This document shows, piece by piece, positions 1 to 5,908 of a stretch of DNA of 6,866 bases. A model generated the notes under the pieces. It was not told where the DNA came from. It saw nothing but the letters and a program-made list of their open reading frames with translations, and made no database searches. Origin of the DNA: a virus. Taxonomy: Duplodnaviria; Heunggongvirae; Uroviricota; Caudoviricetes. The translations under genes and the position numbers were made by a program. How positions within the stretch are numbered: the first letter of the stretch is position 1; each line of letters starts with the position of its first letter. The stretch lies in the IMG/VR virus record IMGVR_UViG_3300000289_000108. One strand, written 5' to 3'.

Positions 1-36
1 CAAAAAGAGGGATAATCTGAAAGAGTTTGAATTTCT

Positions 37-240
37 TCATTGTTTGATTTCCTTGATGTACTTACTGAAAAGGCGAACAACGCCTGCCGGGTACAGCATG
101 GCAATGAAAATGCCCAGCAATACCAGGAAGGAGCTGTCTGATGAAATCATTCGGGGGAGTAGTCCTGCATACAGAATGAGAGAAACGAGGACGCATACCA
201 GCGCCCACATGTATGCGCGAAACCAGGTCTTTTTGTTCAT
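37..240 (-). CDS. small membrane protein, 67 aa, two predicted transmembrane helices
   Basis: ATG at 238-240 with TAAGGGA Shine-Dalgarno about 8 nt upstream; two hydrophobic stretches (WALVCVLVSLILYAGLL and FLVLLGIFIAMLYPAGVV); last gene of the - strand small-gene chain in this window. Confidence 0.5.
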   Translation of the reverse strand: MNKKTWFRAYMWALVCVLVSLILYAGLLPRMISSDSSFLVLLGIFIAMLYPAGVVRLFSKYIKEIKQ

Positions 241-251
241 GCTGCGATCCC

Positions 252-551
252 TTACTGGTTAAGGAAAAAATCAAAAACCTTGTCGATGCGTTGCAGCAGC
301 TCTCGCTGCATTGTTTCCGGTGTTTCCGGTTCGCCAGGTGAACCCAGTGGTGCACAGAAATCAGCGATTTCATGATGGAGCGTCAGGCGAATGGCTGGCG
401 CTGTGGTTCTGGCGTGCTCCAGTTCATCCAGTAGTGCCAACACGGCAGATGGCGAGAGCATTGCGCGAAACGCCAGTAATTTTTGATGCGTTGCCATTCG
501 TTGCAGGTCAGTCGCCAGTTCGCGTAGTTCCTGGTGGTTGATGGTGCTCAT
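252..551 (-). CDS. hypothetical protein, 99 aa, predicted helical
   Basis: ATG 549-551 overlaps the stop of the upstream gene (ATGA at 548-551); AAGGAA Shine-Dalgarno 8 nt upstream; no family recognised. Confidence 0.5.
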   Translation of the reverse strand: MSTINHQELRELATDLQRMATHQKLLAFRAMLSPSAVLALLDELEHARTTAPAIRLTLHHEIADFCAPLGSPGEPETPETMQRELLQRIDKVFDFFLNQ

Positions 552-793
552 GCTCTGGCTTCCTTCAGTAGCTGGTTAAACATGCGGGTGAGTGGGTTGC
601 TGCACCCGAACGGCATCGGGTTTACCTGGTAAGAGAACCGACCGCCTGTTTTGCGTTCTTCTCTGATGACTAAGCCGTCGCGCCAGAGTCGGCGTAACTC
701 CGCATTAATGGTTGTGGTTGGGGTATTCAGTGCTGCGGCGATTTCTCCACCGCTACAACCCGGATTGGCGGCGATGTAGTCCAGAATGGTCAT
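548..793 (-). CDS. small winged-helix DNA-binding protein, 81 aa, PapI/FaeA-like pattern
   Basis: ATG 791-793 overlaps the upstream stop (ATGA at 790-793); GGAG 8 nt upstream; motif ILDYIAANPGCSGGEIAAAL...LRRLWRDGLVIRE resembles small wHTH regulators (recollection, not a search). Confidence 0.5.
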   Translation of the reverse strand: MTILDYIAANPGCSGGEIAAALNTPTTTINAELRRLWRDGLVIREERKTGGRFSYQVNPMPFGCSNPLTRMFNQLLKEARA

Positions 794-993
794 CTGCGTG
801 ACTCCTGTACCTGTCGGATAAGGTTCACCCGCGCCACATTCGTGGCGCAGAAGTAAGTGCCGTCAGTGAGATAGATGTGATGTGCATCTTTTTCTGAACG
901 GTGTTTGTCGATAGTGGTAATCAGGCGTTCGTCGACCTCGTATTCGCGCCCTCTGGAGGTAAAGCGAACGACGGGAAAATGCTTAATTGCCAT
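790..993 (-). CDS. hypothetical protein, 67 aa (MAIKHFPVVRF...)
   Basis: Preferred start ATG 991-993 preceded by AAGAGAG; the ORF track's 1011 start is a TTG extension; stop overlaps the next gene's start. Confidence 0.45.
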   Translation of the reverse strand: MAIKHFPVVRFTSRGREYEVDERLITTIDKHRSEKDAHHIYLTDGTYFCATNVARVNLIRQVQESRR

Positions 994-1016
994 TACGCTC
1001 TCTTTGTCCAATAGCC

Positions 1017-1427
1017 CTATGCGTTAAATACGGCACGTTGCGTGCCATCAATGAATGCGGCCTGAGTGCGTTCTATCAGGCGGAGATTTGTCAGAACTTC
1101 TGACTCTCTTACGGGGTAAGGGGTAATCAGGTATTTGTCCTGCAATTCGGCGATAATGATGTATTGCTGTAGCTCCGAGCCAATAATATGAATAAGGTGT
1201 CCAATGTCAGATAAATTCAGTCTGGTGGTTGGTTGTGTTTTGAGAACCGTTAGTTCAGCATCCTGTTTTTCGATGATTTCGGCTGCTTCGGCGGTTACTC
1301 TTGTTATCATCATGGCCGTGGTGGCAGGCCCAATCATTCCTGCATTTGTTGCATCCTGAATGGCTCTGTTTGCGGTCTCTGATATATTTTTTAGCGCAGT
1401 TACAATGCCTTTTTCTTTTGCGTTCAT
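1017..1427 (-). CDS. hypothetical protein, 136 aa
   Basis: ATG 1425-1427 with GGAGA Shine-Dalgarno 7 nt upstream; clean ORF; preceded by a 93-bp intergenic gap inside the operon; no family recognised. Confidence 0.55.
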   Translation of the reverse strand: MNAKEKGIVTALKNISETANRAIQDATNAGMIGPATTAMMITRVTAEAAEIIEKQDAELTVLKTQPTTRLNLSDIGHLIHIIGSELQQYIIIAELQDKYLITPYPVRESEVLTNLRLIERTQAAFIDGTQRAVFNA

Positions 1428-1520
1428 TTTTGTATCTCCGTTATTTACGTGTGCGAATACCTCCGCTAATGCGGATGGTTTTCACGTTTTCTTGTTTAAT
1501 CTGGTGTTTTGTTTGTGCTG

Positions 1521-1634
1521 TTATTCGTCAGAGAAAAAACGTTCAATCTTTTTCACTGAATGAATAATTCGCATAATCCCAATGGCGCAGGCCACCGAAA
1601 TAATCAGAACAATCCATGACATAAATATACTCAT
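1521..1634 (-). CDS. small hydrophobic peptide, 37 aa, single predicted TM helix (MSIFMSWIVLIISVACAIGIMRIIHSVKKIERFFSDE); not in the supplied ORF track
   Basis: ATG 1632-1634 overlaps the TGA of the upstream 80-aa gene (ATGA); GGGGAA Shine-Dalgarno 6-8 nt upstream; hydrophobic core followed by a basic C-terminal tail. Confidence 0.35.
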   Translation of the reverse strand: MSIFMSWIVLIISVACAIGIMRIIHSVKKIERFFSDE

Positions 1635-1873
1635 GCGATATTCCCCAGCTTATACGGTTCAATATGTTCTCCGCATTCTGCGGCGCAGACGAGTTCGGAA
1701 AGTTCGTTAAGTGCATCCAGATCATCAGCGTAAAAAGCCACGTCATACAGACTCCGGATTGCCCTGGTCAATGAGTCACGGGCTGCGCGTTCAGCATGAG
1801 CGCCTGATGCACTTAAGCGAAAATAAAAACGCTCAAGTGCTTTGTTAATGATAGTTTTATATTCTTTGCCCAT
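1631..1873 (-). CDS. hypothetical protein, 80 aa, predicted helical
   Basis: ATG 1871-1873 with GGGAAAA upstream; stop overlaps the start of the 37-aa peptide gene. Confidence 0.5.
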   Translation of the reverse strand: MGKEYKTIINKALERFYFRLSASGAHAERAARDSLTRAIRSLYDVAFYADDLDALNELSELVCAAECGEHIEPYKLGNIA

Positions 1874-1893
1874 TGCATTTTCCCGGAAAACAA

Positions 1894-2008
1894 TTAAACA
1901 AAATCTCTTAATGGTTTACCTGATTCAATGCGCTCAATTGCATCGTTAATGGCCATGTATGCGGCGTGATCACCTGCATAGCGTGCGCATTCCTGTAGTG
2001 ACTTTAAT
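1894..2008 (-). CDS. C-terminal fragment of a hypothetical protein (...LKSLQECARYAGDHAAYMAINDAIERIESGKPLRDFV*), N-terminus lost in gap 2009-2175
   Basis: Protein-like open frame ending at TAA 1894-1896, 18 nt upstream of the next gene's start; more protein-like than the alternative frame that the ORF track extends to 1970. Confidence 0.4.
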
Positions 2009-3006: not shown

Positions 3007-3270
3007 CTTCTAGCTGCCATAATGTCTCGTCACCTGATAGAGCAAAACGAAATGNNNNNNNNNNNNNNNNNNNNNNNNNNNNNNNNNNNNNNNNNNNNNN
3101 NNNNNNNNNNNNNNNNNNNNNNNNNNNNNNNNNNNNNNNNNNNNNNNNNNNNNNNNNNNNNNNNNNNNNNNNNNNNNNNNNNNNNNNNNNNNNNNNNNNN
3201 NNNNNNNNNNNNNNNNNNNNNNNNNNNNNNNNNNNNNNNNNNNNNNNNNNNNNNNNNNNNNNNNNNNNNN

Positions 3271-3479: not shown

Positions 3480-3588
3480 ACGATTNNNNNNNNNNNNNNN
3501 NNNNNNNNNNNNNNNNNNNNNNNNNNNNNNNNNNNNNNNNNNNNNNNNNNNNNNNNNNNNNNNNNNNNNNNNNNNNNNNNNNNNNNNN

Positions 3589-4123
3589 AGTTTTGAGCTT
3601 CTGCCTGTATAAACTCGCTTACCGTTAATGGTCTGGCAGTCTTCTTTATTAGCTGGAGAGAACTTCCTTTTCTGGCGGTCATACGTCCAGTAACTTTTCC
3701 AGTTGTGCCATTCTGGGGGCTCGTGCTCTGGTAGCTCATCAGCCAACTTGTCCCACTCTTTGGCGTTAAACCACCATACTCCGTCTGAGTTTTCATCTTC
3801 CGGGTTTGTGCGCGTCTNNNNNNNNNNNNNNNNNNNNNNNNNNNNNNNNNNNNNNNNNNNNNNNNNNNNNNNNNNNNNNNNNNNNNNNNNNNNNNNNNNN
3901 NNNNNNNNGAATGGCTACGCGCAGTGCAGATTTTGTTAGCCCAATATATGCCGCGCCTTTTTCCAGAGAGCAAAGCCCGGCGATCGGACCATCCAGCCGT
4001 AAAGTCGCTCCTTTTTTGTAGGAACGCTTTTTCTTGTTTTCTTCGTGTTCGTCGTCGTTGGCGGCATCAATGGATCCGCTGAGTGTGTCACTTTCCTGAA
4101 GTGGTTGGTGGTCAGATAACTCT
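3589..4123 (-). CDS. AlpA/Cox-like excisionase-family winged-HTH protein, seen as two fragments (3909-4123 and 3589-3817) split by gap 3818-3908; both ends lie in gaps
   Basis: HTH-like GAAYIGLTKSALRVAI, then across the gap a Trp-rich wing-like motif DGVWWFNAKEWDKL as in AlpA/TorI/Cox-type excisionases; first gene divergent from the repressor, as cox is in P2. Frame across the gap cannot be verified. Confidence 0.45.
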
Positions 4124-4260
4124 NNNNNNNNNNNNNNNNNNNNNNNNNNNNNNNNNNNNNNNNNNNNNNNNNNNNNNNNNNNNNNNNNNNNNNNNNNNNN
4201 NNNNNNNNNNNNNNNNNNNNNNNNNNNNNNNNNNNNNNNNNNNNNTGTTGCGCCTTGTGA

Positions 4261-4300
4261 TGGTTTGTTTTGGTTTGTTTTCTTCACCATGTGGTGAAGA
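4261..4300. promoter_or_regulatory. candidate operator region of the lysis/lysogeny switch: tandem decamer TGGTTTGTTT x2 (4261-4280) followed by an inverted repeat TCTTCACCA-tg-TGGTGAAGA (4281-4300)
   Basis: Both repeats are perfect and lie 23-62 bp upstream of the repressor ATG. P2-type repressors are recalled to bind direct repeats, but which protein binds which element here is not determinable. Confidence 0.3.
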
Positions 4301-4322
4301 GTGAAAAGAGGATACTCATCGT

Positions 4323-4664
4323 ATGGTGAACATGTCAAGAGATTACGCCAAAAAACTAAAGGCGATCAGAAATGCAGAAAAACTTACACAATCTCAGTTT
4401 TCGCAAGTAACGGGGGTTTCTGTAGGGACTATAGGGAATTATGAGTCTGGATATAAACCTGCGCGAATTGAGGTTGTAGAAAAAGTAATCCAAGTCGAGC
4501 GATTCGAAAAATACACTATGTGGATACTTCACGACAAAACATTTCCCGCTGCCGGGCAGGTTGCCCCGGCTCTCTCTCTTGATGGCTCTATTCAGTCGGA
4601 GGGCGATCAGGTTTCAATCGGTATTACCCAAAAATCACCCCGATCAGGCCGCAATGTTGGCTGA
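4323..4664 (+). CDS. phage P2 C-type immunity repressor, 113 aa
   Basis: AAGAGGA Shine-Dalgarno 10 nt upstream of ATG 4323; HTH region KLTQSQFSQVTGVSVGTIGNYESG and motif FEKYTMWILHDK...GQVAPALS match recollected P2 C (YESG, FTKYTLWF, GQIAPALA); immediately upstream of and co-oriented with int. Confidence 0.8.
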   Translation: MVNMSRDYAKKLKAIRNAEKLTQSQFSQVTGVSVGTIGNYESGYKPARIEVVEKVIQVERFEKYTMWILHDKTFPAAGQVAPALSLDGSIQSEGDQVSIGITQKSPRSGRNVG

Positions 4665-4733: not shown

Positions 4734-5801
4734 ATGTCGATTAAGCAACTCAAAGACGGACGTTATCAGGTCGATGTCAGACCGCAGGGGGCGGAAGGAA
4801 AGCGGATTCGAAAAATCTTTGCCCTGAAATCAAAGGCTCAGGAGTTTGAGAAGTATGTGTTACAGAACTTTCATGACAAGCCATGGCAGGCTAAGCCAGC
4901 TGATCAGCGGCGATTATCAGAGCTGCTTGATGCGTGGTGGATGCTTGATGGGCGTAATCAGGCTTACGGGGATAGCTACAGGGTTAGGCTAGGGAAGGTT
5001 GTTCGTGAAATGGGAGATCCTCGCGCCAGTCAGATGACGCGAAAATTTATGCTTGAATATCGGTCAGAGAAATTACAGGCCGGATTAATGCCGTCCAGTA
5101 TTAATCGTGACTTATGCGTACTGTCTACCATGTTCACGGTGCTGATTGAAGCTGAGGTCTTTCACAACGCGAACCCTGTACGCGGTATACGAAAACTGAA
5201 AGTTCAGAACACAGAGATGGCCTTTCTTTCTGATGATGAGATTGAACGGCTTCTTGAGCGACTGGAGGGTGATGCGCGTCGTGTTGCCATTCTGTGTCTT
5301 TCTACTGGTGCCCGATGGAGTGAAGCATCGGAACTACGTGGAGAGCATATCGTTGGCAACCGGGTGACGTTCTTTAACACCAAAAACGGAAAATCCCGTT
5401 CGGTTCCTGTGGCGGATTCGGTCGTGCCTCTGATTAAAACCCGTCGAACGGGGTTATTGTATCAGGTTGATTATCTGAAGTTCCGGGAGATTCTTCAGGA
5501 GGTGAAACCNNNNNNNNNNNNNNNNNNNNNNNNNNNNNNNNNNNNNNNNNNNNNNNNNNNNNNNNNNNNNNNNNNNNNNNNNNNNNNNNNNNNNNNNNNN
5601 NNNNNNACGCATGTCATGCGTCATACATTTGCCACACACTTTATGATGAATGGCGGAAATATTGTTACGTTGCAACGAATCCTGGGGCACGCAACGATTC
5701 AGCAAACAATGACGTACGCTCATTTTTCGCCGGACTTCTTACAGGACGCGATCAACTTTAATCCGCTGGCTGAAAGTGTCCATAAACTGTCCATCGATTA
5801 G
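4734..5801 (+). CDS. int: P2-family tyrosine integrase, about 355 aa with an internal gap at 5510-5606
   Basis: GGAGGGG Shine-Dalgarno 6 nt upstream of ATG 4734 (the track's 4719 start is a TTG extension); MSIKQLKDGRYQVDVRP, PSSINRDL, AILCLSTGARW, HVMRHTFATHFMMNGG, TLQRILGH and QTMTYAHF match recollected P2 Int, including the catalytic R, HxxR, H and Y motifs. Confidence 0.9.
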   Translation: MSIKQLKDGRYQVDVRPQGAEGKRIRKIFALKSKAQEFEKYVLQNFHDKPWQAKPADQRRLSELLDAWWMLDGRNQAYGDSYRVRLGKVVREMGDPRASQMTRKFMLEYRSEKLQAGLMPSSINRDLCVLSTMFTVLIEAEVFHNANPVRGIRKLKVQNTEMAFLSDDEIERLLERLEGDARRVAILCLSTGARWSEASELRGEHIVGNRVTFFNTKNGKSRSVPVADSVVPLIKTRRTGLLYQVDYLKFREILQEVKXXXXXXXXXXXXXXXXXXXXXXXXXXXXXXXXXTHVMRHTFATHFMMNGGNIVTLQRILGHATIQQTMTYAHFSPDFLQDAINFNPLAESVHKLSID

Positions 5802-5822
5802 TTATAATTTGTGTTAATTTGT

Positions 5823-5873
5823 TCCCCCTGTTTTGGCTTATTCGTTGAAAAATAAGTAAATCATCAGGGGGAG
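5823..5873. repeat. nested inverted repeats (TCCCCCTG...CAGGGGGA enclosing CTTATT...AATAAG) just downstream of int; candidate attachment-site/core region
   Basis: Arms read directly from sequence; the enclosed GAAAAATAAG resembles the start of the P2 attP core as recalled (AAAAAATAAG...); position is as expected for a P2-type att site. Confidence 0.3.
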
Positions 5874-5884
5874 CAAGAAACGTT

Positions 5885-5908
5885 AAAGCGCCTGCGGGCG
5901 CTTTTTTT
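5885..5908 (+). terminator. rho-independent terminator (GCGCC-tgcg-GGCGC followed by a 7-T run)
   Basis: Perfect 5-bp GC stem extended by A-U pairs plus a U-tract, downstream of int or at the upstream host gene's 3' end. Confidence 0.7.

Follow-up and report, generated by a model that had tools for sequence, protein, structure and literature searches.

We consider it likely that the interrupted minus-strand gene described here encodes a single 173-residue protein of the Cox family, acting both at the genetic switch and in excision, and that it is the first early gene of a P2-like prophage of the PhiECO5 type. The gene lies in a 6,866-nucleotide stretch of viral DNA, the whole of which we refer to as the window, and is broken by runs of N. 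The Cox protein of phage P2 flips the lysis/lysogeny switch and directs prophage excision; P2-type Cox proteins repress Pc, are required for excision, and also activate the late promoter of the satellite P4. The gene itself is already known, having been annotated as Cox family by the NCBI pipeline, and the prophage was catalogued as PhiECO5 in 2011.

Reconstruction of the gene across the N-runs

Each block of the window between N-runs was mapped onto the matching locus of E. coli UTI89 (locus L001), and the three blocks that carry the cox-like gene are 100% identical to it.

3484..4245, minus strand: whole cox-like gene, 173 amino acids in UTI89, from UTI89 block mapping, annotation and translation

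The mapping reveals that the N-runs are not true to length. The 91-N run at 3818–3908 takes the place of 24 bases in UTI89 (L001 positions 4974–4997), the 103-N run at 3486–3588 of 29 bases, and the 122-N run at 4124–4245 of 49 bases; every N-run in the window is about 67–77 bases longer than the UTI89 sequence that it replaces, and reading frames are therefore not transferable across the runs. On the minus strand, '...GAAYIGLTKSALRVAI' stops at the N-run 3818–3908 and '...TRTNPEDENSDGVWWFNAKEWDKLADELPEHEPPEWHNWKSYWTYDRQKRK...' picks up beyond it, the encoded stretches reading '...ELSDHQPLQESDTLSGSIDAANDDEHEENKKKRSYKKGATLRLDGPIAGLCSLEKGAAYIGLTKSALRVAI' before the run and '...TRTNPEDENSDGVWWFNAKEWDKLADELPEHEPPEWHNWKSYWTYDRQKRKFSPANKEDCQTINGKRVYTGRSSK' beyond it. 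With 91 N as printed, the two halves of the gene are out of frame (frames 2 and 0); with a run of 24 bases they are in frame, joined via HRGQMPGH, and form a single open reading frame of 173 amino acids. The join is taken from UTI89, whose flanks are 100% identical to those of the window, and not from the window's own, masked bases. In RefSeq the 173-codon reading frame is WP_001204238.1, annotated in UTI89 as a 'Cox family DNA-binding protein', and, judged by sequence, the two fragments are one Cox-family gene of 173 residues. The preliminary description of this DNA had assigned a helix-turn-helix (HTH) and a Trp-rich segment, one on each side of the N-run 3818–3908, to the same protein, and the UTI89 join bears this out, with both on the minus strand; that the two fragments should lie in different frames with a stop between them was named there as the finding that would speak against it, and the 24-base stretch instead gives one reading frame.

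The ends of the gene are hidden in part. Its stop codon spans 3484–3485 and the first hidden base, and the ATG together with codons 1–8 is masked by the N-run 4124–4245, which is padded, leaving the start coordinate indefinite. In all 10 alleles examined there is a Shine-Dalgarno sequence (SD), GAGGA, 6 nt 5′ of the cox ATG, and in 9 of the 10 an in-frame stop lies two codons upstream of that ATG. The UTI89 allele is the same as the window over the visible parts, and from M1 to the HTH it has no further in-frame start codon (ATG, GTG or TTG).

These observations bear on the view that the fragments are two unrelated genes, or that translation begins at an internal start just before the HTH and the long reading frame is an artefact of annotation. 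The printed 91-N run does put the fragments out of frame, as two genes would have it, but the 24 bases and identical flanks in UTI89 yield one reading frame; an artefact would not be expected to hold its frame in ten alleles in which the indels of the linker (see below) are always in whole codons; and an internal start sits poorly with the conserved SD and ATG that mark M1, with an allele that offers no alternative start, and with the strong purifying selection on residues 40–57, upstream of the HTH. We regard this view, in either form, as hardly credible.

Prophage context and neighboring genes

In UTI89 the cox-like gene is the first of a leftward early operon and is divergent from the repressor gene and the integrase gene, the three lying toward dmsA in a complete P2-like prophage, at one of its ends; the insertion is between serS and dmsA. 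This prophage encodes a P2-family capsid, scaffold, terminase, sheath, tube, Ogr and replication endonuclease, and its arrangement of int, C and cox is that in the P2 record. The two neighbors lie in the window as follows.

4323..4664, plus strand: C-type immunity repressor gene, 113 amino acids, HTH_3, divergent from cox
4734..5801, plus strand: P2-type tyrosine integrase gene, 330 amino acids in UTI89, with the N-run 5510–5606 inside it

No other excisionase-like gene adjoins int in the UTI89 prophage. The module of int, 113-residue repressor and long Cox is kept at other integration sites in Salmonella and Serratia. Nilsson et al. (2011, PMC3448106) list the prophage as PhiECO5 (UTI89 911187–948481) and class its regulatory region as P2-type; they also report two groups of Cox proteins, one with larger members, that have only six residues in common. 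Two phage records, vB_EcoM-705R2 and vB_EcoM-569R5, were considered as evidence of an active phage and set aside, both being PHASTER-predicted prophages.

Family and fold of the protein

The protein matches the Pfam family PF10743 (Phage_Cox) at 31.2 bits, above the gathering score of 27.5, and the match pairs residues 58–129 with positions 11–86 of the 87 in the profile; P2 Cox, as a positive control, scores 161 bits against the same profile. The PHROG family phrog_23196 spans the full length of the protein (residues 1–173, E 4e-116). Comparison of an 81-sequence profile with P2 Cox by hhalign pairs residues 60–123 with P2 residues 13–76 (probability 95.8%, E 8.2e-9), and a local profile HMM search against P2 Cox gave 36.4 bits. 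The preliminary description had proposed an excisionase of the AlpA/TorI/Cox type; of this the Cox part holds, on PF10743, hhalign and the P2 Cox structure 4LHF, and the AlpA/TorI part does not, there being no Phage_AlpA match at E ≤ 1 in Pfam and a score of 13.4 bits for the TIGR01764 'excise' domain, below its cut-off of 28.8. A relationship to MerR-like families, which had been named there for a profile search, finds no support either, as no MerR family appears at E ≤ 1 in the Pfam or NCBIfam results and MerR-type structures occur only far down the Foldseek list, at E > 0.2.

3693..3975, minus strand: Cox winged-helix core, residues 58–129, from PF10743, hhalign, the structural model and the Foldseek match to 4LHF

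Two AlphaFold models were made. The first, from 34 close homologues, was poor (mean pLDDT 48), and conclusions about the fold are drawn from the second, made from the 81-sequence alignment, in which pLDDT is 72–86 in the core, 57–70 in the tail and below 50 in residues 1–40, with a mean of 62. The predicted elements are β1 (58–60), α1 (61–68), a turn and α2 (72–80), which form the HTH, then β2 (86–90), a long wing loop, β3 (100–105), α3 (106–119), and short helical turns at 122–128 in the α4 region; the N-run 3818–3908 masks core residues 80–87 (HRGQMPGH). The order published for P2 Cox is β1, α1, turn, α2, β2, long loop, β3, α3, α4 (PMC3936717), and the order in the model, whose confidence is moderate, is the same. 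The top PDB match of the model in Foldseek is P2 Cox itself (4LHF; E 2.8e-4, probability 1.00, TM 0.69 normalised to the target). As queries against PDB sequences, the plain protein and the 34-sequence profile did not reach P2 Cox, and returned only chance matches, to NDUFA12 via the string PPEWHxW (E 3.2) and to nitrous-oxide reductase (E 1.1), which were discarded.

Other excisionases (Pukovnik Xis, RdfS and 2KVV) rank after 4LHF in the fold search, with weaker scores and weak E-values. Their presence would suit a protein that is only an excisionase of the AlpA/TorI/Xis kind, playing no part in a transcriptional switch, but the Pfam and TIGR01764 results just given argue against such a protein, as does the position of the gene, first in the early operon and facing the repressor gene; moreover, the strongest repeat array of the prophage, with four phased units, lies at the switch and not at att (see below). 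We therefore hold this explanation to be very unlikely and continue with a Cox protein of dual function.

Near the end of the core is a pair of tryptophans, W124-x-x-W127, that is invariant in the 81 sequences. In the pairwise alignment, and by the endpoints of the Pfam match, they correspond to W81 and W84 of P2 Cox, the hhalign and profile alignments ending at residue 123. In P2 Cox, W81 and W84 are oligomerisation residues (PMC3936717). The W-x-x-W at the end of the core is thus probably equivalent, by alignment, to the oligomerisation tryptophans of P2 Cox, and EPPEWHNW is probably part of the canonical Cox oligomerisation motif.

Repeats, putative operator and putative promoter at the switch

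From the start of cox into the repressor gene the window contains three features of a putative switch.

4254..4278, plus strand: phased YTTGT direct repeats, three visible units with exact 10-bp spacing, candidate Cox boxes
4282..4299, no strand assigned: perfect palindrome CTTCACCATGTGGTGAAG, read from the sequence, putative C-type repressor operator
4309..4338, minus strand: sigma-70-like promoter directed toward cox, 10/12 matches in a promoter scan, putative Pe

The YTTGT array is placed between the cox start and the repressor operator, and a fourth unit, partly masked, is at about 4244–4248. The array is highly specific in its location: YTTGT-N5-YTTGT-N5-YTTGT is found in the window at 4254–4278 only (0.00 expected), and in the 48.7-kb UTI89 locus the same triple is found at the switch only, as two overlapping matches that make up four units (0.00 expected). 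Both the array and the cox leader are conserved across ten loci and immunity types. We note that the YTTGT motif is short and T-rich. The palindrome at 4282–4299 behaves differently from the array, being swapped for at least three other palindromes in relatives that retain the YTTGT repeats, as is expected of repressor operators of different immunity types.

The putative Pe has a –35 hexamer TTGACA at 4338–4333 and a –10 hexamer TATCCT at 4314–4309, the –35 being just inside the repressor gene, as in P2. A consensus scan in UTI89 coordinates gave no convincing lysogenic promoter Pc, and the overlap of the YTTGT boxes with Pc is assumed from P2. In our preferred reading the Cox protein would occupy the four phased units of the switch and thereby silence the lysogenic promoter. 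The layout of the sites agrees with the general rule described for Apl/Cox operators (PMC7498355).

The attachment-site end

A second set of candidate sites is found at and beyond the 3′ end of int.

5777..5794, plus strand: tandem TGTCCAT repeats at the int 3′ end, matched nowhere else in the window, putative Int P′ arm-type sites
5808..5822, plus strand: pair of TTTGT units with 10-bp spacing, candidate Cox boxes in excision
5885..5904, plus strand: att core AAAGCGCCTGCGGGCGCTTT, the terminator hairpin of serS, with a second copy at the opposite prophage end in UTI89

The tandem TGTCCAT occurs exactly twice in the UTI89 locus, once at each end of the prophage (0.01 expected), and its placement mirrors that of the Int arm sites in the P2 record, TGTGGACA; in P2 the int gene overlaps one of these sites at its 3′ end. 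An AATTTGT pair following int had been a candidate for the Int arm sites, and was dropped in favor of the TGTCCAT tandem pairs, which are present at either end of the prophage. The TTTGT-N5-TTTGT pair, with the Int P′ arm sites on one side and the att core on the other, is the sole such pair in the prophage outside the switch. By binding these two units in the P′ arm and bending the DNA, the Cox protein would direct Int toward excision.

It could be argued that the protein is a Cro-like regulator of the switch and nothing more, with excision left to another factor or to none, and with the TTTGT pair at att arising by chance or belonging to another protein such as IHF. There are just two units in the P′ arm, the region is AT-rich, and two shuffles of the window also produced two matches to the pair; however, the pair is conserved in relatives that are integrated at other chromosomal sites, and its location, flanked by the core and the Int P′ site, corresponds to that of the Cox site annotated in P2. 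An excision factor other than Cox would also have to be sought away from int, given the lack of any adjoining candidate, and the Cox and Apl proteins that have been characterised are dual-purpose (PMC3448106, PMC7498355). We consider it unlikely that the protein is confined to the switch, and favor a role at both places.

N- and C-terminal extensions

Relative to P2 Cox the protein has about 47 extra residues at the N-terminus and about 40–44 at the C-terminus, the visible parts of which are as follows.

3976..4123, minus strand: N-terminal extension, visible part (residues 9–57), from alignments, dN/dS, charges and pLDDT
3589..3692, minus strand: C-terminal extension, visible part (residues 130–164), YWTYDRQKRKFSPANKEDCQTINGKRVYTGRSSK, from dN/dS, invariant residues and the model

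The N-terminal extension consists of an acidic linker, which differs in length between alleles, followed by a basic patch, KKKRSYKKGATLRLDGPIAG. The C-terminal extension is basic and aromatic (Trp/Tyr-rich), and its last residues, 165–173, are masked by the N-run 3486–3588. Net charges are –8 for residues 1–39, +4 for 40–57, –3 for the core and +8 for 130–173. The preliminary description had noted an acidic N-terminal stretch that the 91-residue P2 Cox lacks, and the charge of residues 1–39 agrees with this. It had also described a C-terminal extension rich in Trp and charged residues; the basic Trp/Tyr-rich tail is indeed present, but the segment EPPEWHNWKS, with which that extension was said to start, falls inside the Phage_Cox match, which runs to residue 129.

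Selection on these segments was compared by pairwise Nei-Gojobori dN/dS; in most pairs the synonymous sites are saturated or nearly so. The ratio is 0.01–0.08 in the basic patch (40–57), 0.02–0.3 in the Cox core (58–129), and 0.02–0.35 in the tail (130–164), the same range as the core; it is 0.27–1.7 in the acidic linker (13–39), and the last nine residues (165–173) are roughly neutral. By this measure purifying selection acts on the basic patch and the C-terminal tail as strongly as on the core, and the acidic linker drifts. Invariant residues of the tail are W131, Y133, R135, F140, K145, C148 and R160, and for this part the model predicts, at low confidence, two β-hairpins at 130–157 and a helix at 163–169. 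Residues 1–40 are left unstructured in the model, and acidic residues 13–39 behave as a disordered, fast-evolving linker.

Taken alone, the extensions match no Pfam family, the sole hit being zf-CCHC_3 with 14.9 bits, below its cut-off of 27. The added interaction or regulatory domains suggested in the preliminary description are thus conjectural, with no known domain matching either extension and low model confidence in both. A zinc knuckle in the tail was rejected on account of this score and the single conserved Cys, and a fusion to a P2 orf78-like gene on account of an hhalign probability of 0.09%.

The basic patch (40–57) and the basic aromatic tail (130–164) may add non-specific contacts to DNA, or contacts to Int, to a Cox filament. 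As a tentative and rather doubtful elaboration, the tails could make the filament a regulated one, in which the patch and the hairpin tail clamp DNA or contact Int, the acidic N-terminal tail competes with DNA for these basic parts and thereby imposes a threshold concentration on filament formation, and an mRNA hairpin that hides the SD (codons 2–12) adds translational control of a protein that commits the phage to lysis; the basic modules would in that case, and with the same reserve, replace the basic residues of P2 Cox α3 and α4.

A possible mRNA hairpin at the 5′ coding end

The conserved beginning of the gene may have a different explanation from that of a peptide motif. Codons 5–12 (ATTGCCGATAAAGAGTTATCTGA) are invariant at synonymous positions even though other synonymous sites of the alleles are saturated; in the pair L001 and L014, which is the UTI89 allele and one diverged from it, 0 of 6.7 synonymous sites differ in codons 5–12, against 38 of 45 in the core. 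In minimum-energy and consensus folds, GGAUAAC of the SD region pairs with GUUAUCU of codons 10–12 in 8/8 alleles, and RNA folding also pairs the codon-2 region with codons 5–6 in all eight. The invariant residues I5, A6, L10 and S11 are encoded by the paired segments, and the loop codons 7–9 vary. The conserved N-terminal 'motif' may thus reflect an mRNA hairpin that hides the SD, and not a peptide motif.

Carried further, this would leave the N-terminal extension without a function as a peptide, its 5′ end being kept as the hairpin and its acidic stretch being a neutral translated spacer. The invariant synonymous positions, the pairing of the SD in every allele folded, and the distribution of the invariant residues among paired and loop codons all favor the hairpin, and the dN/dS of the linker favors the spacer. 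On the other side, the hairpin finds no support in covariation, as not one compensatory double change was seen, and its folding z-score is a modest –1.5; and acidic N-terminal tails recur in distant Cox-like proteins whose sequences are unrelated, suggesting that the acidic character itself is selected. We judge this explanation of the N-terminus to stand somewhat short of an even chance. It covers residues 1–39 only and is compatible with our main conclusion, that the protein is a Cox-family regulator of the switch and of excision.

Distribution and comparison with known systems

A megablast search of complete E. coli genomes finds the region in 315 genomes, eight of them, including UTI89, at 99% identity or more, and the gene is present in 357/5,426 complete E. 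coli genomes (about 6.6%). Human clinical isolates, from urine for instance, account for many of the carriers, among them UTI89, NU14 and O25b:H4 strains. Full-length homologues of 166–192 amino acids are found in Escherichia, Shigella, Yersinia, Salmonella and Serratia. Clustering at 50% defines the long form as a narrow family, with 23 representatives among 1.84 billion proteins. A profile search recovered 222 PF10743 proteins, most of them of 119–182 amino acids and with the same layout, which runs from an MQE-type start through an acidic linker that varies in length, a basic patch and the HTH to an invariant PPEWHxW and, last, a basic tail. The 173-residue form differs from a form of about 135 residues mainly in an insert of about 20 residues and in a YWTYDR motif in the tail. 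A scan of genome contigs gave one locus, in E. albertii, and the diverged alleles come from complete E. coli genomes and contig look-ups. The architecture had been called unusual in the preliminary description, which is an overstatement for a gene found in 357 E. coli genomes, with a full-length PHROG and with long Cox proteins (119–192 amino acids) being abundant; it is P2's 91-residue Cox that is much shorter than the family members recovered here.

The closest characterised protein is P2 Cox (91 residues; 4LHF; PF10743), and the likeness extends from profile and fold homology, with the same order of elements, a long wing loop and W-x-x-W near the end of the domain, to genetic organization, since in both cases cox opens the early operon and diverges from C and int, and direct repeats spaced by one turn occur at the switch and again in the stretch that separates the att core from the Int P′ site. 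In addition to the difference made by the extensions of about 47 and 40–44 residues, identity is 20% in the Foldseek alignment to 4LHF and 24% over 63 aligned columns in hhalign, and the core here is net acidic (–3), with P2 R73 and K75 not kept in the hhalign register. The binding sites differ as well, the cox box of P2 being TTAAA(G/C)NC(A/C) (PMC3936717) and the candidate box here YTTGT. The P2 C repressor has annotated direct repeats, whereas the 113-residue HTH_3 repressor here has a putative palindromic operator.

Enterobacterial Cox-family proteins of about 119–141 residues (for example P0094 and P0104; Hafnia, Serratia, Salmonella and E. coli) share the layout of the protein described here, and all belong to PF10743, but they are 24–31% identical to it and are without the insert of about 20 residues (FSPANKEDCQTINGKRVYTG) and the YWTYDR of the tail.

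The excisionase Xis of phage lambda has a winged-helix core, forms a head-to-tail microfilament on phased sites, and contacts Int with its C-terminal tail. The protein here resembles it in having a winged-helix core and a C-terminal tail outside that core; it differs in that Xis plays no role in the lambda switch, in the lack of detectable sequence similarity, and in its tail, for which structure is predicted and which has a far more basic character.

Coliphage 186 Apl is, like the proposed function here, a dual-purpose recombination directionality factor and switch regulator, and it binds direct repeats with 10–11 bp spacing between face-to-face promoters and at att (PMC7498355). It belongs to a different Cox/Apl subgroup, however, and its partners are a CI-type repressor and cII. 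A sequence match between Apl and the Cox protein here was not obtained.

Significance

To our knowledge, all mechanistic and structural work on Cox has been done on the minimal 91-residue proteins of P2 and W-phi, and in the searchable literature we found no experiment on this protein or on any long Cox. The extensions are genuine, partly conserved, functionally unstudied, and typical of the family members recovered. With the gene annotated and the prophage catalogued beforehand, the value as a discovery is small, and that for phage biology modest; it derives from the observation that most of the enterobacterial Cox members found here are longer than the P2 and W-phi proteins, and from the prospect that the basic tail, the acidic linker and a possible translational hairpin could account for the tuning of excision and of the commitment to lysis in the widespread P2-like prophages that pathogenic E. 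coli and Salmonella carry.

Relationship of the window prophage to PhiECO5

The cox/C/int module, which encodes the Cox-family protein, the immunity repressor and the integrase, is 99.8–100% identical to that of Escherichia coli UTI89, whereas the distal early region (window 1–2008) is only 88% identical and contains numerous indels. This contrast indicates, at the level of sequence comparison, that the window prophage is a mosaic relative of the UTI89 prophage PhiECO5 and not the same phage.

Nine of the ten N-runs in the window can be mapped onto UTI89, and each exceeds the corresponding UTI89 sequence by about 67–77 bases; the comparison omits the first run (2009–2175), which is not mappable. 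The gap lengths therefore cannot be used for carrying reading frames or spacings across, as these examples illustrate.

N-runs of the window and the UTI89 sequence replaced
2698–2777: 80 N, 5 nt in UTI89
3055–3270: 216 N, 143 nt in UTI89
3486–3588: 103 N, 29 nt in UTI89
3818–3908: 91 N, 24 nt in UTI89
4124–4245: 122 N, 49 nt in UTI89

Inside the leftward early operon, on the opposite strand, lies a small open reading frame:

2786–2977, + strand: 63-aa ORF (MSEDKKVVNLLSDL...), a hypothetical protein in the UTI89 annotation

Several relatives lack this ORF or carry something else in its place, so it could be an insertion of the moron type.

The UTI89 prophage also carries cargo that is unusual for P2, outside the window (UTI89 locus L002, 11459–11599 and 37033–38308):

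Hok/Gef toxin gene, in the interval from ogr to the att site
ParM-type segregation gene and partition/stability gene, adjoining the replication endonuclease
SPFH-domain gene, in the early region

Attachment site

L002 11180–11270 and window 5777–5904 together show the complete att layout:

att core: formed by the terminator hairpin of serS, with one copy at each prophage end
Int arm-type sites: tandem TGTCCAT, on both att arms
AT-rich stretch: separates the core from the arm site on the ogr side, in the position of the IHF site in P2

The cox gene and its 5′ end

The 5′ UTR and first 12 codons of cox (UTI89 locus L001, 5200–5260) fall mostly under N-run 4124–4245 in the window, with codons 9–12 visible at 4111–4122. 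Synonymous sites of codons 5–12 are unchanged across the E. coli, Salmonella and Serratia alleles, and in the predicted mRNA fold the Shine-Dalgarno sequence GGAUAAC is paired with GUUAUCU in all eight alleles. Folding of these eight gave no covariation support for the hairpin; the modeled structure may be one that controls translation.

Cox residues 120–131 (window ~3687–3722) include an invariant PPEWHxW string resembling the PPEWHGW of NDUFA12, a mitochondrial complex I subunit; at a phmmer E-value of 3.2, we judge this a chance match.

Variation of the putative operator and possible exchange of immunity

Adjoining the conserved YTTGT array of candidate Cox boxes is a palindrome (window 4282–4299, with equivalents in the related loci L003, L005, L006 and L010–L014) for which the loci show at least four variants unrelated to one another:

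CTTCACCATGTGGTGAAG
AGATAAYC...GGTTATCT
ATGTCGAAAATTCGACAT
Salmonella type

Judged from the sequences, these swaps look like modular exchange of immunity, repressor together with operator, beside a constant Cox module.
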